A stretch of DNA of 64,000 bases from Planctomyces sp. (GTDB lineage Bacteria; Planctomycetota; Planctomycetia; Planctomycetales; Planctomycetaceae), in NCBI GenBank assembly GCA_005798445.1, contig SYJG01000071.1:3452-67451 (forward strand), written 5' to 3'. Positions 492 to 16,183 of this stretch are shown here, one piece after another. Position 1 is the first letter of the stretch. Each line of letters begins with the position of its first letter. A program made the position numbers and the translations under genes. The notes below the pieces were generated by a model, which was given only the letters and a program-made list of their open reading frames with translations, had not been told where the DNA came from and did no database searches.

Positions 492-713
492 TCAAAGACC
501 CTGCATTAAATCGGACAGGCTCATTTTGAGGGTCTTCGCGATGAGGTCGATGTTCCTCAAAGCCAAGTTTCTCTCCCCTCGTTCGATCCCACCCATGTAG
601 GTCCGGTCCAGGCCGCATTTGGCAGCGAACGCTTCCTGGGACAGACCTTCTGCCCGTCTCAGTTCTCGGACTCGTTGTCCGAAGCGTTCAAGGATGTCGA
701 CTGCTTTGCCCAT
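492..713 (-). CDS. XRE-family helix-turn-helix transcriptional regulator (73 aa)
   Basis: Canonical Cro/C1-type HTH: [52 protein letters not shown] start. The size is typical of controller- or antitoxin-type XRE proteins. Confidence 0.85.
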
Positions 714-3041: not shown

Positions 3042-3845
3042 TCACGCCATCTTCGTGAGATTTGCAGCGATTCGTTGATTGATGGAGAGGCAGGCCGACT
3101 TGCGGTCCATGCAGGAGATGTCGAGCCAAGTCGTGTCGATGGACTGTGATCCTCCGAAAACTTTGGGCTGAAGGCCAATCGCCCTTGCCATGAAGTCCCA
3201 GAATTCAACGGGCAGTCGTGGTTTTCCAACCTCGGTGTAAATCGGTGTGATCAGAGTATGCAGTCGCGTGCCGTCAATACTGGGAACTTCGATTCCTTGT
3301 GGGATGAGGATCAGCCACCAGTCGACGATTCCATTCGATGTCTTGGCCTCTTCGTGCCATTTTTGCCAACTCAGGGGAGCAACCCATTGGTGGTTTTGAG
3401 CAACGCTGTTGTACAACTCAAACAACAAACCCAAGAGGCCACGAACCCAATCCTCAGTTCGTTCTTGGACGCCATAGACCTGTGTCAGAATTGAGGCTGC
3501 CTGAACGATGCGGAGAATCGTTTCGGCGTCCTGCGATGCACCTGCGTCGTCCCATCGTCGACCAATCTGCTGAGCAAGCTCAACTTGACGGCGGTCATCG
3601 TGAGCTTGACTGGGCAAGATCAAAGTTCGCTCCGGTGAGAACGGGTGCAAGCCCTTACGGATACACGACCATGATTGGGGAATCCCAAACAGTTCGATTT
3701 CCAGCGTTTGCTCATACTTCGTCAGCCAATCGGGCCGGGTATCAACCTCTGCCATTGCAGTGGCCTGACAAAAGGACGACATCACCATCCCAGAAACGGT
3801 TCCGATGGTGGTCTGCAAGAATTCTCGTCGCTCGATCAACATCAT
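3042..3845 (-). CDS. hypothetical exported protein with twin-arginine (Tat) signal
   Basis: N-terminus MMLIERREFLQTTIGTVSGMVMSSFCQATAMA carries the Tat consensus RR-x-F-L plus an AxA cleavage site. I prefer ATG 3845, which is preceded by AAGGTG at 6 nt. The track ORF starts 9 nt upstream at a GTG (3854). Confidence 0.6.
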   Translation of the reverse strand: MMLIERREFLQTTIGTVSGMVMSSFCQATAMAEVDTRPDWLTKYEQTLEIELFGIPQSWSCIRKGLHPFSPERTLILPSQAHDDRRQVELAQQIGRRWDDAGASQDAETILRIVQAASILTQVYGVQERTEDWVRGLLGLLFELYNSVAQNHQWVAPLSWQKWHEEAKTSNGIVDWWLILIPQGIEVPSIDGTRLHTLITPIYTEVGKPRLPVEFWDFMARAIGLQPKVFGGSQSIDTTWLDISCMDRKSACLSINQRIAANLTKMA

Positions 3846-3902
3846 CGAAGGCACCTTAGATAACTGAGATTGTCAGCCCGTTTCTTGAACTAAGAAGCTG
3901 TC

Positions 3903-4307
3903 TTAGCTCCTCCCGGACTTCTTCATTTGTTCCAGGTTTTGATTGATCTGGATGTTCTGCAAAATTTGATTGAGTTGCAGTAACCGGTTTTCTTCTGCGG
4001 CCATGAGGATGGCCCTCTCTTCAGGACTTTTGCATCTCCACTCCAACATCGCTCGGTCGTACTCGGCTTTGAGCTGTCGATTAGTTTCTTCGTCGTACCA
4101 GGGTTTGCCAACGAGCCCCAAACCGAAGAGGAAGAAAAGTACGGTGACTCCTCCGCCGATGTACGGAAGCCAGTTCTCCGTGAACCATCTCATTCCCGCG
4201 TCTTCTGAGCCTTGTCCTTTGAAGTAACACACGACTGTCCCAGCAGCCGCCATTCCAGTGACGAACAGGATTTGGCCGAAGGTATAAACTTTGGGTTGAA
4301 AGCTCAT
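3903..4307 (-). CDS. hypothetical membrane protein (two predicted TM helices, coiled-coil tail)
   Basis: Hydrophobic segments ILFVTGMAAAGTVVCYF and IGGGVTVLFFLFGLGLVG. I prefer ATG 4307, which is preceded by AAGGAG. The track ORF extends to 4394. Confidence 0.5.
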   Translation of the reverse strand: MSFQPKVYTFGQILFVTGMAAAGTVVCYFKGQGSEDAGMRWFTENWLPYIGGGVTVLFFLFGLGLVGKPWYDEETNRQLKAEYDRAMLEWRCKSPEERAILMAAEENRLLQLNQILQNIQINQNLEQMKKSGRS

Positions 4308-4567: not shown

Positions 4568-4734
4568 GGCAAACAGCCAACGGGATTGTGCCGACTCGCC
4601 TCCCCTAAGCGGGGCCTGCGTCTCTCCGGGAGCCAGTGGCCTCTATTGATACCCGCAGCCCGTGACACAGGCGGGACAGTCATTCGGAAGAACCGAGGGA
4701 TTTCGAAGGAGTCCTGTTTGAGGCAACAAACAAC

Positions 4735-5595
4735 TCAATTGTGTTTGTTGCTGGTTTGCAGGATCGTCCAACTCGCACAGTTCAAGACCCCTCCGTCCTC
4801 AGCCAGATTCCGACAGGAAAGCGGCACGACACGGCAGTGGGGAAGTAAGTTCGTCAAAATGTCCCAAGCAACTTTATCTTCGGGGAGTCCATAAGCTGGG
4901 AGAAGAATCACGTTTCCAACCCGAAGATAATTGGCGTAATTGCCAACGGCTGAGGGTATGCCATTGCGTATTCGCAATTCCGGCACATACGGGAGACGGA
5001 CGAATGGAAGAGCGTTGGCCATCAACACTTTTTCGAGTCGTTCCGCAAACCCCGAATCAACGCCGCGATAGTCGCTAATGACGATTTGATGCTCCGTCAC
5101 GAACCGAACCATTCCGTCCGCATGTCCCACTCGATCAAACGGTTCCTTGGGGATGACGATCAATCGTTCGACCTGAAGCTCTCGTTGAAGTTCGGCACGA
5201 ATCTCACTTCGATTTCGATCGGAGTTCTCTTTGAAAAGCTTGTCCGTCACGATGGCCACAGAGCGTGTCCCCACGATGTTTCCACCGTCCATAATGAGCT
5301 TTGATCTCGTCGATCGCTTAAACAACTTCAACCTCCGAAAAACCTCCGGCTTGGTGATGAGATCCTCGTCACCGTTAAGAAGGTAGTTGGGCCTGTAGCG
5401 GAATTGGGTGAAGTGTCGTTCATTGACTTGAATCGGTGCCGCATCTCGAATCCAAATGTCTGCGGTTCCAAAAACGACAATCAGGGGGATCTCTTGTTCG
5501 ACAAGAGCGGCCTCCCATTGGCGGACGATCTCCAGATACCGCTGAGGCAGCAGGTCGGAGATCAGAACCGTGTTGGTTTCCCAGTCAGCAAGCAT
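4735..5595 (-). CDS. agmatine deiminase / peptidyl-arginine deiminase (PAD_porph) family protein
   Basis: Guanidino-modifying-enzyme family motifs appear in the expected order: DIWIRDAAP (D.W.RD.gP), MDGGNIV, VGHADGMVRF, NYANYLRVGNVILLPAYG, and a C-terminal catalytic-Cys segment EDGGVLNCASWT. At 286 aa it is shorter than typical AguA. Confidence 0.65.
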   Translation of the reverse strand: MLADWETNTVLISDLLPQRYLEIVRQWEAALVEQEIPLIVVFGTADIWIRDAAPIQVNERHFTQFRYRPNYLLNGDEDLITKPEVFRRLKLFKRSTRSKLIMDGGNIVGTRSVAIVTDKLFKENSDRNRSEIRAELQRELQVERLIVIPKEPFDRVGHADGMVRFVTEHQIVISDYRGVDSGFAERLEKVLMANALPFVRLPYVPELRIRNGIPSAVGNYANYLRVGNVILLPAYGLPEDKVAWDILTNLLPHCRVVPLSCRNLAEDGGVLNCASWTILQTSNKHN

Positions 5596-5601
5596 GATTG
5601 A

Positions 5602-5963
5602 TCAGAATCGTTCGGCGACGTACCAACGCTTTTCTGAAGCGTTCCACGTCAGCGTGTAGGTCGTGATATCTGTTAGGGGCGTCCCTGCCTTCGATTTCCA
5701 TTCGATTGCGACGTTGAACCGATAGGCTGGCCAAGTTTTCCAGTCCTCTGGGAGCTTCTCGACGTCGTCGAATGCCGCAAAGTGTGGCTCATCGGTGACC
5801 ACGCTGCGAATATCGTAGTTGATGGGGTCCAGCAATCCTCGAATTTTCGCCTTCTGGGTCGCCGCTGAGTTTTCTTGGCCCGCGATCCACTTCTTGAATT
5901 CGGTGTCAAAATGTTTTCGAGCAGCAGTCTCAGTTCCGGATGAATTGTCCGAACAGCCGCACA
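5602..5963 (-). pseudogene. 3' part of a small lipoprotein gene disrupted by IS21-family insertion
   Basis: The 120-aa track ORF starts MCGCSDNSS. Its ATG is a hybrid of the terminal A of the IS plus the TG of the target duplication. The missing signal peptide lies on the other side of the IS (8493-8540). Confidence 0.75.
5959..5963. repeat. target-site duplication GCACA (left copy)
   Basis: GCACA immediately flanks both IS termini (5959-5963 and 8493-8497). Confidence 0.85.
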
Positions 5964-5995
5964 TGTTGACGACGGTTGAAAATGGCGGCGCGGGG
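5964..5995. repeat. IS21-family terminal inverted repeat (left)
   Basis: TGTTGACGACGGTTGAAAATGGCGGCGCGGGG is the exact reverse complement of 8461-8492. Confidence 0.92.
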
Positions 5996-6070: not shown

Positions 6071-6853
6071 TTAGCTCGCAGGTCCGTGGTGAGGACGTCT
6101 TCGTCGTTTGGCGTCCTGAAGGCGGTAGCTTTCGCCCTTGGCCTCCAGGAGGTGGCAGCGATGCGTGAGGCGATCCAGGGCCGCTCCGGTGAGGCGTTCG
6201 CTGCCGAGCACCTCAGTCCAATTCTCGAAGGGGAGGTTGGTCGTCACGATCAAGCTGTTCCGTTCGTAGGCGGTGGCGATCACGTCGAAGAGCAACTCGG
6301 CTCCGGCCTTGCTGGCGGGAACGTAGCCCAGCTCGTCGAGGATCAACAGATCCAGCTTGCCCAATTGTTGACGGAGTCGCAAGAGGTGACGTTCCTCTTT
6401 GGCTTCCAACAACTGCGTGATCAGTTCGGTCACGCGAAAGAAGCGGACCTTACGGCCCTGCGAGCACGCGGACATTCCGAACGCCGTCGCCAAGTGAGTC
6501 TTACCGGTGCCGCTGGGGCCGACTAGCAAGAGGTTCTCGCGGCGATCGAGGTATTCCCCTTTCAGCAGTTCCAGGACCAGCGGCTTGTTGACGCTGGGGC
6601 GAGCCGTGAAGTCGAACTCGTCGAGCAGCTTCGTCGCCGGGAAGCGGGCTCCCTTCAAACGCCGCTCGGCCGCCTTGCGTTCTCGTTCGAGCAACTCCAG
6701 TTCGCACAATTGCAGCAGGAACGCCAGATGATCGGCGTTGTCTGCGGCACAGCGCTGGGCGATCTTCTCGCACTCGGCCGTCATCGTCGGAAGTTTCAAG
6801 GCTTTGAGGTGATGCTTGAGCAATACGGTGCTCTTGGTGTCGGTCGGTGTCAT
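6071..6853 (-). CDS. istB: IS21-family helper ATPase IstB
   Basis: MTPTDTKSTVLLKHHLKALKLPTM..., Walker A LLLVGPSGTGKTHLA and Walker B LDLLILDELGY. ATG 6853 overlaps the istA stop (ATGA). The 364-aa track ORF is an upstream extension inside istA. Confidence 0.92.
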   Translation of the reverse strand: MTPTDTKSTVLLKHHLKALKLPTMTAECEKIAQRCAADNADHLAFLLQLCELELLERERKAAERRLKGARFPATKLLDEFDFTARPSVNKPLVLELLKGEYLDRRENLLLVGPSGTGKTHLATAFGMSACSQGRKVRFFRVTELITQLLEAKEERHLLRLRQQLGKLDLLILDELGYVPASKAGAELLFDVIATAYERNSLIVTTNLPFENWTEVLGSERLTGAALDRLTHRCHLLEAKGESYRLQDAKRRRRPHHGPAS

Positions 6854-8340
6854 GGCGTCACCTCCGTCAGCAGAGCCTGATACGCGGAGACCTGAGTGAT
6901 CTCCACACGCACGTGAGCCAGGTGCGGTCGGCCGTCCAACGCAAACAGCGGAACGGGTTGATCGCTGCGATGCTCGACGATGGTCCGCAGGCTGTCGGCA
7001 TCGATCACGTCGATGTCCAACGCGTACTCCACCGCGTCGGTGAGCTGGGACAGTGAGAACTTCTCCAGCAATCGCAACACGCGAATGTAGGATCGCGTGC
7101 CGTTCCGTGGATCGTCCGCTTCCAGACGCCGTCGCAGCAGCGCGAAGCCGTCTGGCAACTCCCACTGCTCCAATGGCTTGGCGAAGTCGAAGCCTCCTGG
7201 CTTACGCTCCAACAGTGCCAAGTAGTGAACCGGCTCAAAGAAGGTTCGCTCACGCTCCCACGAACGCCAATGCCGAGCCACCAAACGATCCTCGAAGACC
7301 AGCCGCACTTCCTCCACCGTGGCGATCACCAGCAGCTTCCGATGCGCGTACTGCACCGGGACCGAATAGTCGTTCGTGTCGAACCGCACCAGCGATTGCG
7401 AATCGGCGGTCCCGTCGGTGATCCGGCGTGATTCAAACGTCTGTTTCGGCAACGGCAGAAACGCCGCTCGATCTTCGGCGAGCAGTTCACGCTTACTGGC
7501 GGGCTTGCCGCGTGTGCGTTGCTCCAGATCCTGCTGACAACGCTCCAGCAACTGCCGATTCAGCGTCTCCAGCGAATCGACCTCCGGCACCGGCACCAGA
7601 AAGCTCCGCCGAGCAAACCCGACCAACCGTTCGACGTGTCCCTTCTCGTTGGCTCGACGCACCAGACAGAAGTGCTCGCGGAACAGATAATGGCTCTGCA
7701 GCCGCAGGAACTCATTCGTCAGCTTCCGTTCCCGACCCTTCAACACCTCGATCACCGCGATCGCCAAGTTGTCATAGCTGATCCGCCGCGGCACTCCTCC
7801 AAGGTACTCAAACGCCCGGCGATGGCCCTCCAGAAACGTCTCCGTGCATTCCCGTGGAAACGCCTGCACGAAGATCGCTCCCGAATACGGCAGCGTCATC
7901 ACCAACAACGCCACCGAAGTCTCTTGGCCATTGAGCTTGATCTTCGCCTCGCCGTAATCCACCTGAGCTTCCCCCGGCGGATGCGACAACGGCAAAAACA
8001 CTTCCTTCCGCGACTGACGCCACTCTCGAACGGCCATCGACACCATCGTCAGGCCGCCGGAATAGCCATGCTCATCCCGCAGTCGCTCGAAGATCCGCCG
8101 AACTGTGTGTCGCTGCTTCTTCGGAGCCTCACGGTCCGCTTCCAAAATCTGCTCAATAATCGGCACAAACGCCCCCAGCTTCCGCTTCTTCCGCGGTTGC
8201 TGGAGCCGATATCCCGGCGGCTCCGCGTGAGTCAAAATCTTCTTCAGCGTGTGCCACCCCAAACCGTACTTCTGACACGCCGCACGCTGGCTCAACTCGT
8301 TCGTCAAAACTTCCCGACGAACTTCCTTCCAGAATTCCAT
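6850..8340 (-). CDS. istA: IS21-family transposase IstA
   Basis: N-terminal HTH (LSQRAACQKYGLGWHTLKKIL) followed by a DDE/rve core, with typical IstA length and istB coupling. ATG at 8340. The track ORF starts 12 nt upstream at a GTG (8352). Confidence 0.9.
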   Translation of the reverse strand: MEFWKEVRREVLTNELSQRAACQKYGLGWHTLKKILTHAEPPGYRLQQPRKKRKLGAFVPIIEQILEADREAPKKQRHTVRRIFERLRDEHGYSGGLTMVSMAVREWRQSRKEVFLPLSHPPGEAQVDYGEAKIKLNGQETSVALLVMTLPYSGAIFVQAFPRECTETFLEGHRRAFEYLGGVPRRISYDNLAIAVIEVLKGRERKLTNEFLRLQSHYLFREHFCLVRRANEKGHVERLVGFARRSFLVPVPEVDSLETLNRQLLERCQQDLEQRTRGKPASKRELLAEDRAAFLPLPKQTFESRRITDGTADSQSLVRFDTNDYSVPVQYAHRKLLVIATVEEVRLVFEDRLVARHWRSWERERTFFEPVHYLALLERKPGGFDFAKPLEQWELPDGFALLRRRLEADDPRNGTRSYIRVLRLLEKFSLSQLTDAVEYALDIDVIDADSLRTIVEHRSDQPVPLFALDGRPHLAHVRVEITQVSAYQALLTEVTP

Positions 8341-8460
8341 ATCGCTACGCACTCCTGAGTCTCCTGGTGAACCTCGTGAAGATCGGAGCTAACGCTCCAG
8401 TCTTCACTATTCACCAGACGACACGTCTGTGCGCCGCCATTTTCAACCGCCGCGATCTTC

Positions 8461-8492
8461 CCCCGCGCCGCCATTTTCAACCGTCGTCAACA
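8461..8492. repeat. IS21-family terminal inverted repeat (right)
   Basis: CCCCGCGCCGCCATTTTCAACCGTCGTCAACA is the exact reverse complement of 5964-5995. Confidence 0.92.
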
Positions 8493-8497
8493 GCACA
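8493..8497. repeat. target-site duplication GCACA (right copy)
   Basis: Identical to 5959-5963 and directly abuts the IS terminus. Confidence 0.85.
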
Positions 8498-8540
8498 AAC
8501 AAATCACAACTAGAACGCACCATCGATGCCATGTTGTCAC
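8493..8540 (-). pseudogene. 5' part (signal peptide) of the IS-disrupted lipoprotein gene
   Basis: On the minus strand, GGAGGAAGAAC is followed by a GTG start at 8540, then ACA ACA TGG CAT CGA TGG TGC GTT CTA GTT GTG ATT TGT TTG TGC. Removing the IS and one GCACA copy joins this in frame to 5602-5958, giving MTTWHRWCVLVVICLCGCSDNSS..., a short signal peptide with a lipobox-like LCG|C. Confidence 0.7.
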
Positions 8541-8650
8541 AGTTCTTCCTCCGGTTCAGTGAAATGAGAGCCGAGGATTGAACTCGTGTGAGATCAAGAA
8601 CGTCCCTGGCTTCGCTTTACCTGATACCCGAAGGAGCTGACAGGAGCGGG

Positions 8651-9721
8651 TCAACCGTGGTCGGCCAACGCCTGCAATTGGATCGCATCTTCCAAAGTCT
8701 GAATGAACAGGTCTTTTAGTTCGTCGGGTTTCTGTACTCGAACGTGGCCAGCCCATGACAAAATCCAATGCAGGATTTCACTGAGGCCATCGACCTGAAA
8801 GCTGAGGGTCAGGCTGCCGTCTTTGTGAGTTCTCGCCTTTTGAGTGTGGTGCCAGATTGTCTCGATCACGACCTTGGCAGCAGTGGGCTTGAACTTGAGC
8901 TCGATGTCGTAAGATTGATCGCCTCGAAAAACGGCCCATGCGTTCCCAAAGTAGGTCTGCAGATCGAAGTCTTCCGGAATGAGGGCAGGCTCCGCTTGCA
9001 TCCGTAATGCCTTGAACCGAGCCACGCGAAATGTCTTCGGGGCTGTCTCATCTGCCATTGTTCCGATGATGTACCACGCATTCTTGATCAGACACAGCCG
9101 ATACGGATGGAGGTTCAATTTGACCGGAGTGGGTTCGTAGGGACTTTCGTAAAGCCCGCTGATTTGTTTCCCCTGCAACAAGGCCAGTTGCACCGTCCTG
9201 ATGACTTCATGATGGCGACTATGGTCCACCAGCTTGAGGTCCAGAACGGATACCAATCGCATTGCATCGTCGATCAGTTCTTGCGTCTCCTCTTTCGAGA
9301 CCGCAGCTAGTTTTCGAGTTGCTGGGGTTGCTCCAGCCGTGACATCCATTCCCGGTGCCTTTGTGATGGCTGCTGCGAGCGAAAGTCCCAACACTTCATC
9401 ATCGGTGAGTGTCATCACTGGAAAGCGAAAGTCCGGTCGGACTCGAACAAACTGCTGGTCTCCCTCTCGGTAGTAGGGAATCCCAGCAAACCTCAAAACG
9501 TCCAGGTCTCGATAGACCGTTCTTTCTGAGTATTCGAGTTCCTCAGCGATGGCTTTGGTTGTCCATCGTCCTCGGCTTTGAACCAGTTCCAGAACTCGAA
9601 GAACTCGTGCCAGCCGGTCAGCCTGACGGACACGTCGATCTCGATCAGGCCTGTCCCGCTTATTGGGGTTCGGACCCGCAGACTTGGGCTTCGGCTTCTT
9701 CTTCGTCGGTCTCTCCGCCAT
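8651..9721 (-). CDS. WYL-domain transcriptional regulator (HTH_11 + WYL + C-terminal extension)
   Basis: Winged HTH (RWTTKAIAEELEYSERTVYRDLDVLRFAGIP) and a WYL core (HPYRLCLIKNAWYIIG...TFRVARF). The N-terminus is basic. The ATG shares one base with the stop of the upstream gene (TAATG). Confidence 0.85.
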   Translation of the reverse strand: MAERPTKKKPKPKSAGPNPNKRDRPDRDRRVRQADRLARVLRVLELVQSRGRWTTKAIAEELEYSERTVYRDLDVLRFAGIPYYREGDQQFVRVRPDFRFPVMTLTDDEVLGLSLAAAITKAPGMDVTAGATPATRKLAAVSKEETQELIDDAMRLVSVLDLKLVDHSRHHEVIRTVQLALLQGKQISGLYESPYEPTPVKLNLHPYRLCLIKNAWYIIGTMADETAPKTFRVARFKALRMQAEPALIPEDFDLQTYFGNAWAVFRGDQSYDIELKFKPTAAKVVIETIWHHTQKARTHKDGSLTLSFQVDGLSEILHWILSWAGHVRVQKPDELKDLFIQTLEDAIQLQALADHG

Positions 9722-10785
9722 TACTTTCCTCGTTCCCCAAAGGACACCCGTTGAAGGGCATCCTCAAATGCTTGTCGATGAAACGTGCGGTAGTATGCCG
9801 CTCTGTAGCTGGTGATGACATTCGCGACGTGATGTGCCCGGCAAACTGCCCAACGGCTCGCCGCGATCAGTCTTTTGAAGAGCAATTCACCGTTCAACCC
9901 GTGTCGATGTTCCAATCCTTTGAGTACGGGATTCCATAATTCGTGCTGGTCGGTCATTCGAGCTTTTGCCGCCGCCAGTACAAAACGGTAGGTCGCTTCC
10001 CAAGGAAGTCCGGCGTGCCGATGCAGAAACTTCATGATAGTTTCCTGGGACAACAACGGCAGCAGCGGCGTCATTTCGGTCTCGACGATTGGCCTCCGAA
10101 TTCTCTTGGATTCCTTTGCAAGATGTCGTTTCAAGTATTCGGAAACGACATCAGGATGAGAATTACCAATCTGGTCCAGAGCAGTCACTGATCCCAAGTC
10201 TTTGATTCGGGATGGGCACAACTGGGACAGCAGAGACCGGACAGTTGCGGATTCGAATTGGAAGACCCCGTCGGTATCACCTTCCCGAATTGTTTCAAAG
10301 ACCGCTTTCTCATTCATCTTGACTGGCGTCTTCGGGAACCGCATTCGGAGCAACTCGGGAACTGCCTCCAGTGCAGTCATTGCATGAAGTGAAACGTTGG
10401 GATGCTGAGGTGCGTCCCATGCTCCGTGATCCGATGGCATCACAACAAACTGAATCGTTGGTGGTTCGCGACTTGATGTGAGCCAGAGCCTTTGGAAATG
10501 CGTGTCGTAGCGGACAGGATCGACTTCCGAGAATCCGAGCAAGAAAAAGATGACGGAAGAGCCAGCGGCCCCAATCAAATGAAAAGTCGCCTTCTGCTGA
10601 CGGAGTTGGTCACCGTACTCGACAATGCGAACCAAGGATTCCTGAAATCCCAGCTTCCGAATGAGGCGGACCTCGGCCTCAAAGAGCGGTTCCGCCCGAT
10701 ACTTGCTCTCCTTCTCATACTTGATTCCAAGCGATAGCCGGCATCGCTCAACGATGGTATTGAAGGTCTTTTCCGAGGATTCCAT
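9721..10785 (-). CDS. truncated DNA polymerase III alpha (DnaE)-like protein, predicted catalytically inactive
   Basis: Collinear similarity to the DnaE palm/fingers core:
- IGAAGSSVIFFLLGFSEVDP matches GRGSaAGSLVaYaLkITdlDP.
- GDTDGVFQFESATVRSLLSQLCPSRIKDL matches t.gVFQlES.GMkdLikrLqPd.FeDm.
- CRAHHVANVITSYRAAYYRTFH matches [23 protein letters not shown].
- The acidic PDxDxDF motif is replaced by PPTIQFVVMP.
I prefer ATG 10785, which is preceded by GGAG. The track ORF starts at a TTG (10800). Confidence 0.6.
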   Translation of the reverse strand: MESSEKTFNTIVERCRLSLGIKYEKESKYRAEPLFEAEVRLIRKLGFQESLVRIVEYGDQLRQQKATFHLIGAAGSSVIFFLLGFSEVDPVRYDTHFQRLWLTSSREPPTIQFVVMPSDHGAWDAPQHPNVSLHAMTALEAVPELLRMRFPKTPVKMNEKAVFETIREGDTDGVFQFESATVRSLLSQLCPSRIKDLGSVTALDQIGNSHPDVVSEYLKRHLAKESKRIRRPIVETEMTPLLPLLSQETIMKFLHRHAGLPWEATYRFVLAAAKARMTDQHELWNPVLKGLEHRHGLNGELLFKRLIAASRWAVCRAHHVANVITSYRAAYYRTFHRQAFEDALQRVSFGERGK

Positions 10786-10884
10786 GTTCTGCTCCACCAA
10801 TGGTCGCTGTCGGATAGAGTGGCATGGTCCCTCGTCACGGATGGGTCAGTCCTCATTGAGAAATCTGACTTCGCGGCTCTGACT

Positions 10885-11130
10885 TCACACTCCTTGCTGA
10901 AAAATCCAGGTGTGAGCGAGGTCAACGATTTTGGCCAGAAGTTGCAGGTCATCGCGACCGAAGGAATCGGTCTGCTTCCATTCCTCGCCGTCCTTGTAGA
11001 TGCGGCTGACCGTGACGTTATGTCGCGTTCCCGCTGTCGTCTGGTTCTCCCAGATCGTGGCCTTGATCGCTCCGAGTCGAACCTCATGGATTGGTTTCTG
11101 TTTTACCGTCGCCATCGTCGTGCTCTTCAT
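10885..11130 (-). CDS. small hypothetical protein (possible PC4/Whirly-like ssDNA-binding fold)
   Basis: 81-aa ORF with an ATG start. A beta-rich core (AIKATIWENQTTAGTRHNVTVSRIYKDGEEWKQT) is followed by a helix (DDLQLLAKIVDLAHTWI). This resembles small bacterial PC4-like proteins, but the match is weak. Confidence 0.4.
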   Translation of the reverse strand: MKSTTMATVKQKPIHEVRLGAIKATIWENQTTAGTRHNVTVSRIYKDGEEWKQTDSFGRDDLQLLAKIVDLAHTWIFQQGV

Positions 11131-11290
11131 TCATAAAAAAGTGTTCGTTGTTCCTGTTGCTCATACCCTGGCGAGGGCGTCGGATTCGCTGAATCCAAAC
11201 CTTCTGCCTCTGATCCGGACTTGGACCGCTTCAATTCAAAGTGCAGCGGCTGCCTGCTGTTCCAACAGCGTGTTGGTTCTCAGGGTAAGC

Positions 11291-12067
11291 TCATCCATGT
11301 CCGTGACCGTTGGAGGTTCGGAGTTGCGAAAGTTTGAATTGCAGGTATTCATTCAACTCTTCAATAAGCCGTCGTTCTGGCAATGAGAACCATCGTTGTT
11401 GCTCAGTGAGAATGTCGATCACACCGCGATAGCTCAGTTCGCCAATGAATGGAGAACGGGGCAGGTCTTTAAGCTGCTCAGCACGAGGGATGGCAGACCG
11501 CAGTTGCACTGGATCGCGGTATTCCTGAACCAAGGGATTACCCGATGTTGGCGTCAAGAGGATCAGGACGAAGTCTCTGGGCGGAAGATCGAAGAGGACG
11601 TCTTCGGTAAACCATCCATTCTCTCGAAGTCCAACGCGAGCGTTTCGGATAAGTTGATCTGCCGGGTAACCCGCTGAGCCGTTGTTGTTGACGGTCTTGG
11701 CGGACAGGTTCGATCCATACTTCATCTCGATGAACACAGTGGTCGCTGGATTTTCCCAAGTGATGACCACATCCACTTCAGTTTGTCCCTCATCCCAAGT
11801 GAGATGATGCCGGGGATAGATGCGTTGTTTCTGCCAGAGTTCAATTCGCAGGTCACGGAAGATCTGTCGGTGAAATCTTTCCGCTCCCAAAGCTTGGTTC
11901 AGAAGATCGGGTAACCACCAACGGGGATTCAGAACTCGCAGAGTTCCGAAAAGTGTCCCCGTCACAACGTCTTCACTGGTGGGCCGCACGATCAGGGGAC
12001 AGCGAAGTTCCCCTTTCCGAGCTGGCTCACACAGACAGCCGCCTTTGCCGTTCAGTTCAGTCAGCAT
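11291..12067 (-). CDS. PD-(D/E)XK nuclease-fold protein, function unknown
   Basis: EVDVVITWENPATTVFIEMKYGS gives D-x(n)-E-x-K. The ATG overlaps the stop of the upstream Cas4-like gene by 7 nt (ATGCTGA). Confidence 0.5.
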   Translation of the reverse strand: MLTELNGKGGCLCEPARKGELRCPLIVRPTSEDVVTGTLFGTLRVLNPRWWLPDLLNQALGAERFHRQIFRDLRIELWQKQRIYPRHHLTWDEGQTEVDVVITWENPATTVFIEMKYGSNLSAKTVNNNGSAGYPADQLIRNARVGLRENGWFTEDVLFDLPPRDFVLILLTPTSGNPLVQEYRDPVQLRSAIPRAEQLKDLPRSPFIGELSYRGVIDILTEQQRWFSLPERRLIEELNEYLQFKLSQLRTSNGHGHG

Positions 12068-12900
12068 GCCATCGCCTCCTGCGGAACCTGCAATTGAACC
12101 AATTCTTGTGGCCGCAGACTCTGGCCCCGCTCACGACAAGGTTGCCGATAGGGACAAGTGGAGCAGTTCATTGGATTTTCGATGGGATAGAAGATTCCCA
12201 AATCGACAGCCCGCTGGATCGTCTGCACCAAGTCTCCCAGTCGTCCACAATCCTCTGCATAGCGACTGGTCTTGAGCCGCTGGATCTTGGGCGTCTTGGT
12301 TTTGACGAGAACCGTGTATTCAACATTCGCATCCCTGCCGAGAGTTTCCCGAACTGCGTGGACGTAGCAGGTTGGTTGGAGCGATGACTCAACTTCTGAA
12401 TCGGAGTAGGCCCGACCACTCGTCTTGAACTCTTTGACCGTGAGGTCTTCATTCGTCTCAGTGATCAGGTCGGTGATCGCAACCAGCGGAGTCTCCAGAT
12501 ACTCCCCTTGGCTGTTGTAGAGCGGCACAAGAATTCGTTGTTCAACGGCGACGATTCCTTCAGGGGGCGGTTCCTTGAAATAGAGCTCCAGTAGATGCAC
12601 GCCCTGTGCGATGCTGTCTTCTCGATTGTCGCCATCGCGATACTGAATCGTCTCGTTCAACTCCTTCTCATCCCAGCACTCGTGAAAAGCCTTCAGGACT
12701 GCTTCCGTGTCGATGGCTTCCTTCCGCTGCAAACGTTGGTGGTACTCAGCCAATCCTGCATGAACTGCTGACCCCAAAGCCAACCCGGTTCCGATGGAGT
12801 GACTGGGAATCCCCAAGACTCGTTGGAAGAAGTATTGCTGCGGGCAGCGGAGATACTGGGTGATCGCACTGTAGCTCCAGTGGGGACGAATGGTCGCCAT
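12061..12900 (-). CDS. Cas4/RecB-like PD-(D/E)XK exonuclease with four-Cys (Fe-S type) signature
   Basis: N-terminal Cys (YLRCPQQYFF), nuclease motifs ITDLI...DLTVKEFKTSG (D...ExK) and QPTCY (QxxxY), and a C-terminal CSTCPYRQPC (C-x2-C-x5-C), as in Cas4/AddB nuclease domains. Confidence 0.75.
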   Translation of the reverse strand: MATIRPHWSYSAITQYLRCPQQYFFQRVLGIPSHSIGTGLALGSAVHAGLAEYHQRLQRKEAIDTEAVLKAFHECWDEKELNETIQYRDGDNREDSIAQGVHLLELYFKEPPPEGIVAVEQRILVPLYNSQGEYLETPLVAITDLITETNEDLTVKEFKTSGRAYSDSEVESSLQPTCYVHAVRETLGRDANVEYTVLVKTKTPKIQRLKTSRYAEDCGRLGDLVQTIQRAVDLGIFYPIENPMNCSTCPYRQPCRERGQSLRPQELVQLQVPQEAMAC

Positions 12901-12906
12901 GATTCC

Positions 12907-13125
12907 TCACACTCCCTGTGGCTTGGCGGCAAGCATGATCTTCCGACACAAGTAACGGCAGATGAGCCGGTCCCATTCAGTGGGCAGGACTCGTGAAACG
13001 GTTTGAGGCGGAAAGCCTTCTTGGTCGAGCCAGTCGAGTAAGGCTTCTGCTCGCAGTTCCGCTTCAAAGAAGTCTTTGATCGCGACCGCCTCCAGCATTT
13101 CGATCCAGGCCGCTTGTGGGTCCAT
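12907..13125 (-). CDS. small hypothetical protein
   Basis: ORF with ATG at 13125 (MDPQAAWIEMLEAV...), just after the upstream stop. An alternative ATG at 13182 would overlap the upstream gene by 44 nt. Its stop lies within the GAGGAA ribosome-binding site of the next gene. Confidence 0.45.
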   Translation of the reverse strand: MDPQAAWIEMLEAVAIKDFFEAELRAEALLDWLDQEGFPPQTVSRVLPTEWDRLICRYLCRKIMLAAKPQGV

Positions 13126-13138
13126 CTTCGCCCCGCTT

Positions 13139-13705
13139 TCAACGGTTGATGCGGCTGCGTCCGTTCGTGACAGGTGCCCCATTCTTATTCAGTGCATCAA
13201 TCACGCCACCAGCTTCCCGTTTAGTGAGGTCATAGACCCCAACTCGACGACCGAGGATGCTTTCAACTCGGCCCTCCAACTGTTGCTGGGTCAGCCCTTG
13301 TCGCTTGCCGAGGTTCAACAGGTATTGAACCTGCTTGTTGGTCGCAGCGTCCTCGTTGGGAGCCTGTCCATTGCCATTGCCGTTCTGCGGAGCCTGCCCA
13401 TTAGGGCTGCTGCTGTTCGGAGCTGCGTTATCGGAGAGATTCGTAGGCGGAGCGGCCGAGCGTTGATTATTCGCCGGTGTAGGTTGCCCCGTGTCTCTGC
13501 TGCCGATGGCAGACTCTCCTTCGTACCGTGCGATCTGCTGGCTCAGAGCCTCCTCAGCCAAATCATAAAACTCTTTGACTCTCTCGATCATCGCCACGGG
13601 GTCATCGAGACCGACACAAAGTTCTCCTTCGAGATTCAGACTGAACCCTGTGGAGTTAAAATCTCGTGACAATTTCCGACTGAGTCCGACATTGACCTTC
13701 AACAT
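13139..13705 (-). CDS. hypothetical protein (first gene of the nuclease operon)
   Basis: 188 aa. The ATG is preceded by AAGGGAG, directly downstream of a terminator. It has a beta-rich N-domain, a low-complexity N/G/P/Q linker and a helical C-terminal module (ATNKQVQYLLNLGKRQGLT...LTKREAGGVIDAL). No family assigned. Confidence 0.6.
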   Translation of the reverse strand: MLKVNVGLSRKLSRDFNSTGFSLNLEGELCVGLDDPVAMIERVKEFYDLAEEALSQQIARYEGESAIGSRDTGQPTPANNQRSAAPPTNLSDNAAPNSSSPNGQAPQNGNGNGQAPNEDAATNKQVQYLLNLGKRQGLTQQQLEGRVESILGRRVGVYDLTKREAGGVIDALNKNGAPVTNGRSRINR

Positions 13706-13716
13706 GTTTGGCTCCC

Positions 13717-13762
13717 TTAAAAGAAGAACGCCTCCGTGATCATTACCCGAATCACGGAGGCG
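13717..13762 (-). terminator. Rho-independent terminator
   Basis: A 12-bp perfect stem CGCCTCCGTGAT / ATCACGGAGGCG (13729-13740 / 13751-13762) with a 10-nt loop, followed on the minus strand by TTCTTCTTTT. It sits 34 nt after the stop of the 169-aa gene. Confidence 0.8.
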
Positions 13763-13795
13763 TCGCGTTAAGGCAGCGTTTTCTCCTGGAGCAAG

Positions 13796-14305
13796 TCACT
13801 CTCCCTTAGCTTCATCGACAGCAGGGGGACTTTCACTGATGATCTCGACTCCTTGATCACTAGACTCTTTCCCAAGGGTCTTGAGCGTCTCTTGGTCGAG
13901 ACCAAGGTCGGCTACGTACTCGCTACTTCCAGGGCACTCTAGTCCAACACCTTTTGTGCCATCTGGAAATTTCATAAGTACTACTTCCTTGGGGATACAT
14001 TCACGGACGTTCGGATTTGGAAACAAACGCTTCATCAACAGTTCATCAGCCCTAAGCGTCAGTTTGACAGAACCGTTTTTGTAACGTGACGGTTTGCGAC
14101 CTCGGCCATTCACATTCTTAGCAGCCAAAACGATCAGATAATCGGGTGCTTCCGAGCTGCATCCCAATGACATTCGATCGCAGTCCCCCTCATCAAGAAG
14201 TCGTATCCATTGGATATCGACATACACATTGATGTGGCAATCTGACAGCTTTTCGATCTGCGTCCGATGAGTCCGCCAATCTTGCCTGCCTGCACTCACT
14301 AGCAT
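13796..14305 (-). CDS. hypothetical protein
   Basis: 169-aa ORF with an ATG start, an AT-rich upstream region and its own terminator. No motif recognised. Confidence 0.5.
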   Translation of the reverse strand: MLVSAGRQDWRTHRTQIEKLSDCHINVYVDIQWIRLLDEGDCDRMSLGCSSEAPDYLIVLAAKNVNGRGRKPSRYKNGSVKLTLRADELLMKRLFPNPNVRECIPKEVVLMKFPDGTKGVGLECPGSSEYVADLGLDQETLKTLGKESSDQGVEIISESPPAVDEAKGE

Positions 14306-14496
14306 TTCAACACCTCCGTATTTTGTGAAAAAAAGAATTAACTTTCACTTCACGTTAATACGTTTTGCGTTTTCCATTTATCGCTGGTGTTTTGTTTTCC
14401 ACAGACTTAATTGAGACTACTTGAATAAACACAGAGAATCACAAGACAAATCTTGATGATTCTAGGTGCGTCACGATCTAACCAAGCTGATGATGA

Positions 14497-15474
14497 TTAG
14501 ATTGCCATTTGCAGAGCGAGTTCCCAAGCTCGTTCCTTGAGACGGGCTCCTGAGCCGAACCATGCCGAATCCAATCGGTTGCTGGCTCGCTCTATTGAGG
14601 TCTTGCCGCGTGTGGAGCGGTAGTGGTCGACATACTCGGTCACCGCATTGAGGGCGGTCCAAGTCGTGTGTCGGATTGCGGGCATCTTGTGTCCAATGCC
14701 TTCCTCGAACAGACGATGAAGTTCCTGTCGAACATTTTTCGTCCGAGTTGATTCACCATCCGGTGAATCTGGATAGACCAGCTTGAAGTACTCTTCGAGT
14801 TGCCGCAGGCTGGGGTAATGACTGGCGAGCCGATTGATGCGAAGCTCCACGTCGTCGTAGAAAGACTTTGCGAGGCCAAGGACTTCCTGAGCCTGCTGAA
14901 TCTTGATTGACAGGTCACCCTTGTGAACGATGACAACTCCCTGACCTCGTCCATTCCGTTCCGCGATCGCCAACGTGTTGGCACAGACCACGCGAATGGG
15001 TGTGAAGAAGACTCGAAGCGATGAGGTTCCATCGTGGGAGTTGGACAGGAGCAGAAACTTCTCTGTGATGTCGTCCGAATTCTTGACTCGGATGTCTTCC
15101 GGCAACTTCGCCAGCATCCAAACCCGTTCCCCTTTTCCCAAAGCTCCGGCAGTGTGATACCGCAGGCTTCCATCTGCCACGAGTGCATCGAGGAATCCAA
15201 AGCATTCCCGATTCTGCACGGGCCTGTAGGTGTTTCCCACGATTCCGAGAATCGCTTTGCTGTCTTCTCTCACCACCGCCAGTTTGTCGGGGACAGGAAT
15301 GTCATTCACCGTCACCAAGCGAGTTAGCTCGACTTCGTAACCCAAGCCAGCCGCTTCGATGGCTTCGTTGGCAGTGGCTGGTTCATCAAGACGTGTTCCC
15401 AGACGGTGCCAGGGAACTTCGCCGGAGTACATCATTGCCGTCCGGCCGTTTGTGGTTGCAAGATCGTGAGCCAC
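14497..15474 (-). CDS. DUF932 (phage/plasmid-like protein, TIGR03299-type)
   Basis: Family hallmarks: PWHRLGT, LGIVGNTYRPVQNRE, GALGKGERVWMLAKL, LLLSNSHDGTSSLRVFFTPIRVVCANTL. I prefer the GTG at 15474, preceded by GGAGAC, which gives MAHDLATTNGRTAMMY... at about 325 aa, the usual family length. The track ORF extends to a GTG at 15735. Confidence 0.8.
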   Translation of the reverse strand: MAHDLATTNGRTAMMYSGEVPWHRLGTRLDEPATANEAIEAAGLGYEVELTRLVTVNDIPVPDKLAVVREDSKAILGIVGNTYRPVQNRECFGFLDALVADGSLRYHTAGALGKGERVWMLAKLPEDIRVKNSDDITEKFLLLSNSHDGTSSLRVFFTPIRVVCANTLAIAERNGRGQGVVIVHKGDLSIKIQQAQEVLGLAKSFYDDVELRINRLASHYPSLRQLEEYFKLVYPDSPDGESTRTKNVRQELHRLFEEGIGHKMPAIRHTTWTALNAVTEYVDHYRSTRGKTSIERASNRLDSAWFGSGARLKERAWELALQMAI

Positions 15475-15791
15475 TTCAGAGTCTCCAGGAATGAAAGAAC
15501 CACCGAGTTTCTTCTCGTGCTCATTACCCCTGAGAAGCCCCCGTCGCCGCCATTCGGCTTCATGGCTGGGGCACTGACCACGGACGCGGAGACATTTCAT
15601 CACCGCTCTATTCAGGGCTATTGCGACCTCAAAGACGATCACGGTGATTGCGATGATCCAGTTCGAGACTTGTGCCAATCCGAGTTCCGGCCCAAGCCAA
15701 TCTCGATGCTGAGTGATTCGTCTGTGGTTCGTCACGGAACGTACCCCGCCCTTGTTTCAGAGTTGTTTTAGCGACCAGACCTTTGGGGAGG

Positions 15792-16028
15792 TCAGGTCGA
15801 TGATTCAATGCTTGATGTCGGTGTCAGAGGGAATGCTTCCGCTAGGAACTTTCCCACATACTGGCGGATGTCCAATTGTGAGAGAGCGGCCTGGGCCTGA
15901 ACGTGGAAGTACAAATGCATTGGCAGGAAGAGTTGGAGAGTTTTGGTATCTGCTGGTTTCCTGCCGTCTTTGCCTTTGCAGAATGCTCTGACTGGCGGCA
16001 TTGCCGCATGGTCGATGGCTGTGCTCAT
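15792..16028 (-). CDS. small hypothetical protein (possible ribbon-helix-helix DNA-binding fold)
   Basis: 78 aa with an ATG start. TKTLQLFLPMHLYFHVQAQAALSQLDIRQYVGKFLAEA fits a strand-helix-helix pattern. Weak call. Confidence 0.35.
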   Translation of the reverse strand: MSTAIDHAAMPPVRAFCKGKDGRKPADTKTLQLFLPMHLYFHVQAQAALSQLDIRQYVGKFLAEAFPLTPTSSIESST

Positions 16029-16065
16029 AGATCGAATTTCCTTTTCACAGTGATTGGGAGGACAA

Positions 16066-16109
16066 CCACTTCAGGTTCCTGCTAGGAGTGAAACATTCCC
16101 CTGAAGTGG
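16066..16109. repeat. inverted repeat CCACTTCAGG / CCTGAAGTGG (10-bp perfect stem, 24-nt loop)
   Basis: Read directly from the sequence. It lies between the acidic-tail ORF and the 78-aa ORF. Confidence 0.75.
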
Positions 16110-16183
16110 TCGTCTTTCCCGTCTTTCAATGTTCCCTACTTTCGTTCTTTAACCTGTCCTGTGTCTTAATCCTGTACTTTTTC

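Follow-up and report, generated by a model that had tools for sequence, protein, structure and literature searches.

The small DnaE-like protein (mini-DnaE) encoded in a 64,000-nucleotide stretch of DNA from Planctomyces sp. (contig SYJG01000071.1; the whole stretch is referred to as the window) may be a derivative of the core of the α subunit of DNA polymerase III (Pol III α) that stands alone, has no catalytic activity and is carried as a backbone component of an ssDNA-triggered regulon on planctomycete integrative elements, a reading to which we assign a probability of about 45%. The findings that are new are the identity of the neighbouring WYL protein as a DriD/PafBC-like regulator with its key residues retained, a promoter-like motif lacking a −35 element, and the approximately 1.8-fold faster divergence of mini-DnaE compared with its WYL partner. 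The interpretation put forward in an earlier note on the same DNA is supported in part. A miniaturised Pol III α-like protein without the catalytic carboxylates, encoded beside a WYL regulator on a mobile island, is indeed found, as judged for the protein from profile alignment and fold, whereas the reported absence of the third-aspartate segment and the statement that no known module is matched need correction, and the idea of a replisome decoy gained no positive support.

The mini-DnaE reading frame extends on the minus strand from an ATG at position 10785 to a TAA stop at 9723..9721, and its translation contains all the peptide strings that had been quoted in favour of a relation to DnaE. 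The similarity is far above chance. The fingers family PF17657 (DNA_pol3_finger) is matched at 2e-15 over residues 155-292 (score 56.9, for a cutoff of 22 bits) and the palm family PF07733 at 1.4e-5 over residues 14-109, which correspond to profile positions 6-102 of 260. Comparison with Taq and E. coli Pol III α yielded values of 2e-10 with the single sequence and 1.6e-22 with the family profile, the latter being the match of the fingers to residues 649-847 of Taq α. The AlphaFold model is confident and compact (pLDDT 90.8), and the only significant PDB matches found for it with Foldseek are Pol III α and PolC, with query-normalised TM-scores of 0.63-0.77. Mini-DnaE can, thus, be confidently described as a homologue of the palm and fingers core of Pol III α.

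Catalysis by this core is not to be expected from the residues retained. In the profile alignment, P109-I-L-Q112-F-V114-V of mini-DnaE is set against P-D-F-D401-V-D403-F of the E. coli protein, so that Gln112 and Val114 take the place of Asp401 and Asp403, as the earlier note had read from the sequence, and a DxD motif is present in 0 of the 31 aligned family members. The segment of the third aspartate (E. coli Asp555) is probably retained without the Asp rather than deleted. It lies in a predicted strand (131-135) followed by a helix, within the conserved block VSVHPMTxLE, where His134 is at least 90% conserved and Glu140 invariant, and the alignment with the phrog_405 polymerase profile begins at residue 133. 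The register around Asp555 differs between the MAFFT and the manual alignment, which leave Pro, Leu or His134 opposite to it; the family alignment contains no conserved Asp in or near the strand. The three catalytic aspartates of the palm (Asp401, Asp403 and Asp555) that distinguish C-family polymerases are therefore lacking, and the fingers domain homologous to PF17657 is there. Of the signature hG[GS] ... DxD, reportedly described for the Pol-β-like nucleotidyltransferase superfamily by Aravind and Koonin in 1999, the loop is kept as I-G72-(S/A), with Gly72 invariant in the family and in the wider superfamily, and the metal-binding Dx[DE] motif is missing.

The protein starts within the palm, residues 10-30 already aligning to α residues ~318-356, and ends near E. 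coli residue ~790. The PHP domain (no match in Pfam or NCBIfam), thumb, distal fingers, HhH/β-binding domain, clamp-binding region, OB domain and τ-binding region are absent, the losses of PHP and of the clamp-binding, OB and τ-binding regions having been proposed before. A deletion of ~140 residues (α ~410-550, inner palm and thumb) separates the two palm strands, which are joined by a variable loop of ~15 residues (116-130). What remains conserved of the cleft is the GS loop, Arg99 and a remodelled nucleotide-pocket block, 'YGFNKSH'. Residues 311-330, the most conserved block of the protein, align to a block of DnaE; the equivalents in PolC, F1276, H1280 and Y1284, line the incoming-nucleotide site (PMC12592400), and in mini-DnaE nucleotide-pocket residues have changed from F to V and from Y to N.

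A protein search gave 76 matches, ~75 of them short mini-DnaEs of similar length and 38-100% identity. These same-length clusters, mostly from Planctomycetota, are part of a wider superfamily of mini-DnaEs of 340-450 residues; of the 84 representatives found below 1e-30 many are in that size range. The cluster of P0001, with 17 members, is at 80% or more identity. Contigs scanned with the full-length alignment gave almost only genuine dnaE genes, one of the patterns used being GDTxGVFQLE, and a single true member; scans of metagenome and viral contigs with the C-terminal sub-alignment found eight metagenome loci and no viral one. The module is also carried by Planctellipticum variicoloris (CP130886, at about 4.77-4.79 Mb). 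We found no description of such a family in the literature, and proteins of this kind do not appear in the two large surveys of the C family of polymerases, both having excluded fragments devoid of the active site or truncated sequences (PMC3919608, PMC12926913). With a dN/dS ratio of 0.20 for the closest pair with DNA available and a conserved family, mini-DnaE is a real gene under selection. The contrary view that it is a decaying dnaE fragment without a function of its own, suggested by the presence of only part of DnaE and by the missing catalytic residues, is refuted by the ~75 clusters of equal length with intact frames at 38-100% identity, the invariant motif blocks, the compact and confidently predicted fold, the dN/dS of 0.20 and the conserved synteny and promoter.

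The gene on the 3' side of mini-DnaE encodes a protein with the Pfam domains HTH_11, WYL and WCX, the best PDB matches of which are DriD (8tp8, 1e-17 over residues 34-346; also 7u02 and 7tzv) and PafBC. In the alignment with DriD, the R-x3-R recognition helix is kept (R67 and R71 for R37 and R41), and Y191, K201, Y217, K229, F231, R232 and F265 correspond to Y168, R178, Y192, R204, W206, R207 and Y240, the residues of DriD to which contacts with ssDNA have been ascribed (PMC10853764). Both the winged-helix, WYL and WCX arrangement with R-x3-R and the ssDNA-contact residues of the WYL pocket are, thus, found in this protein. It is a regulator of the DriD/PafBC type that, by homology, would sense ssDNA and activate transcription. 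On the minus strand the sequence G-TAATG spans 9724..9719, so that base 9721 belongs both to the stop codon of mini-DnaE and to the start codon (ATG) of the regulator, as had been noticed previously. The pairing is consistent: the WYL gene adjoins mini-DnaE in 12 of the 15 informative loci and the stop and start codons overlap at 10 of the 12 junctions examined. In a clade where mini-DnaE is only 27% identical, the WYL protein (60% identity), p120 (50%) and the metallo-β-lactamase-fold protein (MBL, 50%) are all kept. Two elements carry mini-DnaE without an adjacent WYL gene and, therefore, a strict one-to-one partnership is not universal.

A recurrent motif with the consensus cTGACCCRCCnnTGTCAG-N10-(−10 hexamer), and no −35, precedes three units: mini-DnaE/WYL, a lipoprotein gene and an operon for a membrane protein and a β-CASP nuclease (motifs A, B and C, respectively, in table 1). 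In motif A, a GAC-N8-GT(G/C) box stands at a fixed distance from a −10-like hexamer, which is weak in the window (CACTCT), also with no −35. Motif B precedes the p120 lipoprotein gene in related elements; in the window an IS21 insertion intervenes. There are three copies of the motif in the window and two to three in each related element, all matches being intergenic and on the coding strand, with none on the opposite strand in ~250 kb. Scores of 25-33 were obtained for copies with which the weight matrix had not been trained, namely those at 4680..4645 of the window (motif C, 33.0) and in the loci L093, L095 and L106. A search for σ70-type promoters at the motif sites found none. The form tGTCag-N10-(T/G/C)AnnnN is to be compared with tGTCgg(N10)tA(N3)T of PafBC (PMC8635444), and the GAC-N7-GTC box of DriD sits over the missing −35 (PMC13004042); a GTC box at fixed spacing from the −10 hexamer and without a −35 is what the motif displays. 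It matches a promoter of PafBC/DriD-type architecture, at which activation would be predicted by analogy. An RNA hairpin or terminator was considered and rejected in favour of a promoter/operator on account of the fixed N10 spacing to the −10-like hexamer, the strand bias and the match to PafBC/DriD sites; a search of Rfam with positions 8000..16500 gave no match at E up to 1. Mini-DnaE shares an operon with the WYL regulator and is apparently under its control.

The mobile-island setting recognised earlier is also confirmed. Mini-DnaE is a backbone gene of integrase-bearing elements with the common order p76, mini-DnaE, WYL, p120, p134 and MBL, with integrase and excisionase-like genes downstream in related loci, and it is surrounded by IS elements, toxin-antitoxin genes and defence cargo. 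The β-CASP nuclease is conserved together with mini-DnaE and WYL even in a distant clade (50% identity), and none of the elements examined contains a polymerase gene. For p76, which has 1417 homologues and thus a far more extensive family, a PC4/Whirly-like ssDNA-binding nature was suspected, but its model of four strands and a helix has no significant match in the PDB (best E 0.07) and the protein none in Pfam, and it is left unassigned.

Table 1. Positions in the window of mini-DnaE, its neighbour genes and the promoter-like motifs.
Feature	Positions	Strand	Description
β-CASP metallo-β-lactamase-fold nuclease	1689..2996	minus	435 aa
p270	3042..3854	minus	twin-arginine-like signal (RREFLQ); p134/β-CASP unit
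p134	3903..4307	minus	conserved; membrane protein, leading gene of the motif C operon
Promoter-like motif C	4645..4680	minus	upstream of p134/p270/β-CASP operon; CTGTCCCGCCTGTGTCAC-N10-TATCAA
PAD_porph cargo gene	4735..5595		follows p120 in the window
p120	5602..5964	minus	conserved small protein, lipoprotein-like N-terminus; normal target of motif B
IS21-family insertion (istA/istB)	6071..8352	minus	between motif B and p120; absent here in related elements
Promoter-like motif B	8620..8655	minus	overlaps WYL stop codon; TTGACCCGCTCCTGTCAG-N10-TATCAG
DriD/PafBC-like regulator	8651..9721	minus	356 aa; wHTH, three-helix bundle, WYL, WCX
Mini-DnaE	9721..10785	minus	354 aa; Pol III α palm (N-terminal part and two strands) and proximal fingers
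Promoter-like motif A	10815..10850	minus	upstream of mini-DnaE/WYL; ACTGACCCATCCGTGACGA-N10-CACTCT
p76	10885..11115	minus	76 aa, highly conserved, immediately upstream; predicted four strands and helix
Upstream element backbone	11291..15735	minus	p258, Cas4-like, p188, p169, DUF932/TIGR03299
Cas4-like PD-(D/E)XK exonuclease	12061..12900	minus	upstream backbone
p188	within 11291..15735	minus	weak RecT-like match
DUF932/TIGR03299	14497..15735	minus	upstream backbone

The proposed course of events takes into account the homologies described above, from which the sensing of ssDNA, the activation of transcription and whatever mini-DnaE may bind are deduced. Single-stranded DNA would arise from damage, from incoming or replicating mobile DNA, or from phage, and would be bound by a dimer of the DriD/PafBC-like regulator through the residues of the WYL pocket that the alignment shows to be conserved. 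Arg67 and Arg71 of the helix-turn-helix, both present as the motif is, would then read the GAC/GTC box, and RNA polymerase would be recruited to the promoters without a −35 of the three units, namely mini-DnaE with WYL itself (positive feedback), the lipoprotein gene, and the genes for the membrane protein, the exported protein and the β-CASP nuclease. Mini-DnaE would be produced in step with WYL and would be unable to polymerise. Its cleft may bind a nucleotide-like ligand or else DNA, at a 3' end or where ssDNA joins dsDNA. In this way such ends could be kept from being extended, or the ssDNA signal could be tuned, during the action of the nuclease and the envelope proteins. Against the binding of DNA ends count the loss of the thumb and of the HhH/β-binding domain, which in genuine α hold duplex DNA, and the spread of isoelectric points (5.3 to 9.4) and net charges (−18 to +9) in the family, unlike what is expected of a conserved nucleic-acid-binding surface. 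Furthermore, the faster divergence of mini-DnaE with respect to WYL is not explained by the binding of DNA ends alone.

One alternative, which we regard as unlikely, is that an ssDNA-induced dead core poisons or pauses the replication of host or invader, or lures phage proteins directed against Pol III α. Mini-DnaE is a catalysis-free homologue of the essential polymerase of the host, it evolves fast compared with every neighbour gene, as expected in a conflict, and it is found on elements bearing defence cargo (type I restriction-modification, SIR2, DUF2357 and GAP1 genes and toxin-antitoxin pairs), its own element also encoding a γ/τ/δ'-like AAA+ protein. However, the mapped contacts of α are all missing (PHP/ε, the internal and C-terminal clamp motifs and the τ-binding C-terminus), and no clamp-binding motif (QL[SD]LF-type) is conserved in mini-DnaE. 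In PADLOC 2.0, mini-DnaE, MBL, p120, p134 and p270 had no match, the WYL protein alone matching generic WYL models. The family is also not found in phage, plasmid and viral collections: INPHARED phage and PLSDB plasmid proteins gave only the fingers of true DnaE, with no match at 80% or more of query coverage, and BFVD only full-size phage polymerases. No gene-wide positive selection was seen either, the overall dN/dS being 0.2, not above 1, with dS saturated in most pairs.

Improbable to much the same degree is the proposal that mini-DnaE is an obligate co-regulator that forms a complex with WYL in a PafB/PafC-like division of labour and gates the activity of the regulator, either by opposing activation or by adding a second sensor, for a nucleotide signal or the replication state. 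It would account for the overlapping codons at 10 of 12 junctions, for an adjacency that persists down to 27% identity and for the putatively autoregulated promoter that the two genes share, and there is the precedent of PafBC, whose WYL activators can act as hetero-oligomers (PMC8635444). On the other hand, the WYL protein has the full architecture of a homodimer and ssDNA-contact residues of its own, the operator is pseudo-palindromic like that of homodimeric DriD, and the evolution of mini-DnaE is much more rapid than that of the protein with which it would be partnered. In addition, the divergent clade represented by P0070-P0073 has mini-DnaE preceded by the same type of promoter motif with no adjacent WYL gene.

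A more far-reaching idea, to which a low probability is given, is that mini-DnaE, a dead copy of the nucleotide and primer cleft of the replicative polymerase, acts as a sensor or bait of a new pseudo-polymerase class, which would detect attacks on replication or abnormal 3' ends and would gate the ssDNA-sensing WYL switch that fires the nuclease and envelope response on the mobile element, the rapid divergence being the footprint of an arms race. Less probable still, in our opinion, is the conversion of the remodelled cleft into a new metal-dependent site for making or destroying a nucleotide-type molecule. The invariant polar residues E140, Q247, E248, C315 and H318, and H134 and H319, which are at least 90% conserved, are in blocks lining the old active site, and the hG[GS] loop is retained, as is Arg99, the two features by which the triphosphate is held in this superfamily. 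However, such chemistry is not known in the Pol III α fold, the QE pair and H318 are conserved in true DnaE too and may be structural, the wider mini-DnaE superfamily retains as invariant only E38, G72, P90, R99, QE and C315, and the partner regulator resembles a sensor of ssDNA rather than of small molecules.

Coming back to the preferred reading of a non-catalytic core within an ssDNA-triggered regulon, dead homologues acting as non-catalytic parts are known in the Y, B and X families of polymerases; we know of none in the C family, which replicates bacterial chromosomes. Mini-DnaE would represent a new kind of pseudo-polymerase, of a sort set aside in surveys of that family, and it brings with it a testable circuit made up of a DriD/PafBC-like regulator, a promoter motif that is precisely defined, and a small regulon with a β-CASP nuclease as its last member. 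Responses based on ssDNA-sensing WYL proteins would be extended to mobile elements of Planctomycetota, a phylum in which, to our knowledge, almost no regulation of DNA-damage responses or defence has been characterised. A biochemical question is also posed, that of the ligand of the remodelled nucleotide cleft.

With Pol III α (DnaE1, DnaE2, DnaE3 and PolC), mini-DnaE shares the N-terminal palm helices, the hG[GS] loop, the FxRF(L/W) motif, the two palm strands and the proximal fingers with their blocks GVFQLE, YQEQIM and xxKSHxxAY, but it has 354 residues versus ~1,000-1,200 and lacks the PHP, thumb, distal fingers, HhH/β-binding, OB and τ-binding parts as well as the third-position Asp. ImuB is similar in concept, being a polymerase homologue that has lost catalysis and is kept by selection in a DNA-damage-type response (PMC6511836, PMC12926913). 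It is, however, of a different polymerase family and relies on a motif for binding the clamp and on a partner polymerase whose gene lies next to its own; with neither a clamp motif nor an adjacent active error-prone polymerase, mini-DnaE does not qualify as an ImuB-like accessory factor. CapW and BrxR are likewise wHTH-WYL-WCX regulators found on mobile, defence-rich islands and sense ssDNA (PMC11662680), as the planctomycete regulator would by homology, but they are repressors upstream of known defence operons, whereas the planctomycete promoters are built like those served by activators and, apart from the WYL protein itself, no PADLOC model matches the mini-DnaE unit.

A further likeness is that to DriD of Caulobacter and PafBC of mycobacteria, with which the regulator shares the domain order, the R-x3-R helix, the conserved ssDNA-contact residues and the GTC-containing box at a fixed distance from the −10 with no −35. 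As in the autoregulation of DriD, the box is present on the regulator's own operon (PMC10853764), and the regulon combines membrane proteins and a nuclease, as with didA and bapE. The planctomycete regulator differs in residing on a mobile element, theirs being in the core genome, and in a box of the form TGAC-N8-GTCA with a conserved CCRCC core. In the descriptions of DriD, PafBC and SiwR regulons that were consulted, there is no equivalent of a dead polymerase core as the first gene of the regulator's operon. With a DriD/PafBC-type partner and a PafBC/DriD-type promoter, the earlier statement that the locus matches no known module was too strong: mini-DnaE is a new component in a regulon of an already known kind.

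By homology, mini-DnaE is placed in the C-family fold. The fingers (PF17657, 2e-15) and palm (PF07733, 1.4e-5, profile positions 6-102 of 260) domains are both recognised above the Pfam cut-off, NCBIfam alpha-subunit models match down to 9e-19, and comparison with the Taq and E. coli alpha subunits gives 2e-10 with the single sequence and 1.6e-22 with the family profile, so that the DnaE similarity proposed in the earlier note stands well above chance. The structural comparison suggested there leads to the same result: with the AlphaFold model (mean pLDDT 90.8, built on 41 family members) the only significant matches in the PDB are Pol III alpha and PolC (query-normalised TM-score, 0.63-0.77), the next best having E = 0.13. 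All the peptides first quoted are found in the translation, and an alternative TTG start, five codons upstream of the ATG, finds no support among homologues.

The alignment indicates that the N-terminal palm helices and two palm strands are kept, along with the hG[GS] loop (I-G72-A/S...S76-S77), the FERFL equivalent (FQRxW, including Arg99) and the proximal part of the fingers, which ends near E. coli residue 790. The PHP, thumb, distal fingers, HhH/clamp-binding, OB and tau-binding regions are absent. The positions of D401 and D403 are occupied by Q112 and V114 in the profile alignment, confirming the loss of two catalytic aspartates, and the DxD is kept in none of the 31 aligned sequences. 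The segment of the third aspartate, previously thought to be missing, has its place filled by a predicted strand (131-135) and helix with the conserved block VSVHPMTxLE, in which no Asp is conserved; within this segment, Glu140 does not vary and His134 is kept in 90% or more of the members, and the alignment to a phage polymerase profile starts at residue 133. The best conserved block (residues 311-330) aligns to a fingers block of DnaE. Where F1276, H1280 and Y1284 of PolC line the incoming-nucleotide site (PMC12592400), mini-DnaE has W-A-V-C-R-A-H-H-V-A-N. On sequence grounds, the cleft is retained yet remodelled, and the features that define a polymerase are lacking, namely the catalytic Asp residues, the PHP and thumb domains and clamp binding. 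A conserved clamp-binding motif was looked for in mini-DnaE without success; that the protein is an effector or bait directed at the replisome is considered rather unlikely.

The minus strand reads G-TAATG over 9724..9719, and base 9721 is therefore common to the mini-DnaE stop and the ATG of the WYL regulator, as the earlier note had stated. Among 15 informative loci sharing a common backbone, WYL directly follows mini-DnaE in 12 (it is truncated in one and absent in two), which bears out their linkage, with an overlap of 1-26 nt at 10 of 12 junctions examined. Even in a clade with a mini-DnaE of only 27% identity, a 60% identical WYL lies 10 nt downstream, and p120 and the beta-CASP metallo-beta-lactamase-fold (MBL) nuclease (50% each) are also kept. 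A hetero-complex of mini-DnaE with WYL is judged unlikely.

The backbone runs from DUF932/TIGR03299 through p188 (a weak RecT-like match), a Cas4-like PD-(D/E)XK exonuclease, p258, p76, mini-DnaE, WYL, p120 (lipoprotein-like), p134 (membrane), exported proteins and the MBL nuclease to a variable reverse-strand gene, HTH proteins, an excisionase-like protein and a tyrosine integrase. Variable cargo is interspersed (toxin-antitoxin pairs, type I restriction-modification, SIR2, DUF2357, GAP1, IS elements), in agreement with the mobile island first envisaged; the integrase side extends past the left end of the window.

The best solved relatives of WYL are DriD (8tp8, 1e-17 over residues 34-346; also 7u02 and 7tzv) and PafBC. 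R67 and R71 align with R37 and R41 of DriD, which read two guanines of each half-site, and Y191, K201, Y217, K229, F231, R232 and F265 occupy the positions of the DriD ssDNA contacts Y168, R178, Y192, R204, W206, R207 and Y240 (PMC10853764). Many related elements also encode a 111-138-residue paralogue of the HTH domain (43-52% identical, without WYL/WCX), which might compete for the WYL operators without having a sensor; a TGACCC-type box precedes it in the related locus L004.

Comparison of intergenic regions revealed a recurring motif, cTGACCCRCCnnTGTCAG, followed after 10 nt by a -10-like hexamer. A weight matrix trained on 25 copies picks out three sites in the window, each of them on the coding strand, and two to three in each related element, with no copy on the opposite strand of either. 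Untrained copies are also found in L093, L095 and the distant L106, and a variant stands ahead of mini-DnaE in the clade that lacks a neighbouring WYL. Neither a sigma-70-type promoter at the motif positions nor an Rfam match in the region was detected. On binding ssDNA, WYL would activate its own operon, of which mini-DnaE is the first gene, and two further units. In the window, an IS21-family element lies between motif B/WYL and p120, which motif B precedes in related elements, and has probably uncoupled the p120 unit from this promoter.

Features of the window and of related loci (L-numbers)
Feature	Position	Strand	Remarks
73-aa HTH protein	492..713	-	
245-aa protein	933..1670	+	
MBL nuclease	1689..2996		
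Motif C	4680..4645	-	before p134, p270, MBL; outside training set, score 33
PAD_porph	4735..5595	-	between p120 and motif C
IS21-family element	6071..8352	-	istA (500 aa), istB
Motif B	8655..8620	-	on WYL stop codon, before p120
WYL	8651..9721	-	HTH_11, WYL, WCX domains
mini-DnaE	9721..10785	-	ATG 10785, TAA 9723..9721, 354 aa
Motif A	10850..10815	-	before mini-DnaE
p76	10885..11115	-	
p76 leader	about 11116..11180		
271-aa AAA+ protein	16651..17466	-	
278-aa protein	17463..18299	-	
rve-type transposase, first	20608..21669	-	
rve-type transposase, second	30131..31237	-	
Giant ORF	31561..63993	-	at least 10,810 aa; extends past right end
HTH-only paralogue, L004	16338..16754		downstream of MBL
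HTH-only paralogue, L088	14209..14616		downstream of MBL
HTH-only paralogue, L089	14297..14698		downstream of MBL
HTH-only paralogue, L102	15794..16189		downstream of MBL
HTH-only paralogue, L103	17087..17422		downstream of MBL

Several neighbours deserve mention. The family of p76 is large, with 1417 homologues at 70-91% identity and several members in a genome; the p76 model is a confident four-strand-plus-helix fold with no significant structural match, and in several loci the p76 leader carries a GGGTA...TACCC stem and then a T-run right before the start codon. The AAA+ protein, coupled to the 278-residue one (a pair present again in L095), resembles N-terminal Pol III gamma/tau/delta' (HolB domain, 5e-11; 1njf, 6e-6) and is the second holoenzyme-derived protein on the island. 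For the 73-residue HTH protein the matches are to 'control protein' models of restriction-modification systems (2e-23), and the 245-residue protein next to it carries a D...EGK motif of the kind that characterises PD-(D/E)XK nucleases. No methyltransferase was seen, and in other elements their slot holds unrelated reverse-strand genes. The cargo gene for a Porphyromonas-type peptidyl-arginine/agmatine deiminase (9e-29) is absent from related elements. Two rve-type (integrase-core) transposases of the same domain pattern flank a region of TPR-repeat proteins, with HigB/HTH and TacA/GNAT toxin-antitoxin pairs adjoining the first. The giant ORF, whose C-terminal 1,000 residues are full of RTX (HemolysinCabind) repeats (4.9e-64), probably encodes a secreted adhesin or toxin.

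In all 55 pairwise comparisons among 11 elements, mini-DnaE has diverged further than the linked WYL (mean identity, 40.6% versus 68.2%; median divergence ratio, 1.83). It has also diverged further than p76, MBL, DUF932 and the exonuclease; gene-wide dN/dS is near 0.2, whereas WYL has about 0.06 (window-L093 pair). This rate reflects either a loosening of constraint outside four motif blocks or diversifying selection that acts in patches. Between L102 and L089, mini-DnaE shows 77% identity with dS 0.69 and the adjoining MBL 73% with dS 1.47, and the WYL gene of L089 is reduced to its HTH; evidently, modules of these elements are reshuffled by recombination.

As read from the sequences, these data support a Pol III alpha core without catalysis that is expressed, together with an ssDNA-sensing activator, from a WYL-type promoter; the small regulon to which it belongs also includes envelope proteins and a beta-CASP nuclease, and is carried by an integrative element. 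The favoured proposal is that the retained cleft may bind a nucleotide-like ligand, a junction or a 3' end, so as to hold ends or to tune the signal, though the variable charge (family pI, 5.3 to 9.4) and the loss of the thumb and HhH domains speak against it. That mini-DnaE is a neo-enzyme seems improbable. A pseudogene is the sole alternative refuted, by about 75 relatives of similar length and a dN/dS of 0.20 in the closest pair with DNA.

These relatives come from a word-indexed search (76 proteins, 38-100% identity), are mostly from Planctomycetota and are annotated as 'hypothetical' or 'DNA polymerase III alpha subunit'; an exhaustive profile search, in which true alpha subunits start appearing around 1e-34, gave 84 representatives below 1e-30, many of 340-450 residues. 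Searches of IMG/VR, INPHARED and PLSDB gave no member of the family, and no PADLOC model matches mini-DnaE. Distant relatives of 420-430 residues (P0129, P0137, P0172) start with a twin-arginine-type signal, e.g. MTTRRDFLKAVAA, which suggests that a fold derived from a polymerase is exported.

PolC and DnaE1-3 are the only groups in two large surveys of the C family, both of which report the removal of truncated sequences or of fragments without an active site (PMC3919608, PMC12926913), and literature searches returned no description of a DnaE-like partner of WYL proteins. With other pseudo-polymerases the similarity holds in a broad sense only; ImuB has a clamp motif and a partner polymerase, whereas mini-DnaE has neither. 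The promoter motif agrees in form both with the PafBC site, tGTCgg(N10)tA(N3)T, a '-26 element' instead of a -35 (PMC8635444), and with the DriD pseudo-palindrome, GAC-N7-GTC, which sits at the place of a -35 (PMC13004042), and the mini-DnaE/WYL circuit shows, at the sequence level, the features of a DriD/PafBC-type regulon. On this reading, an ssDNA-responsive WYL regulon of an already known type has recruited a protein family for which no description was found.
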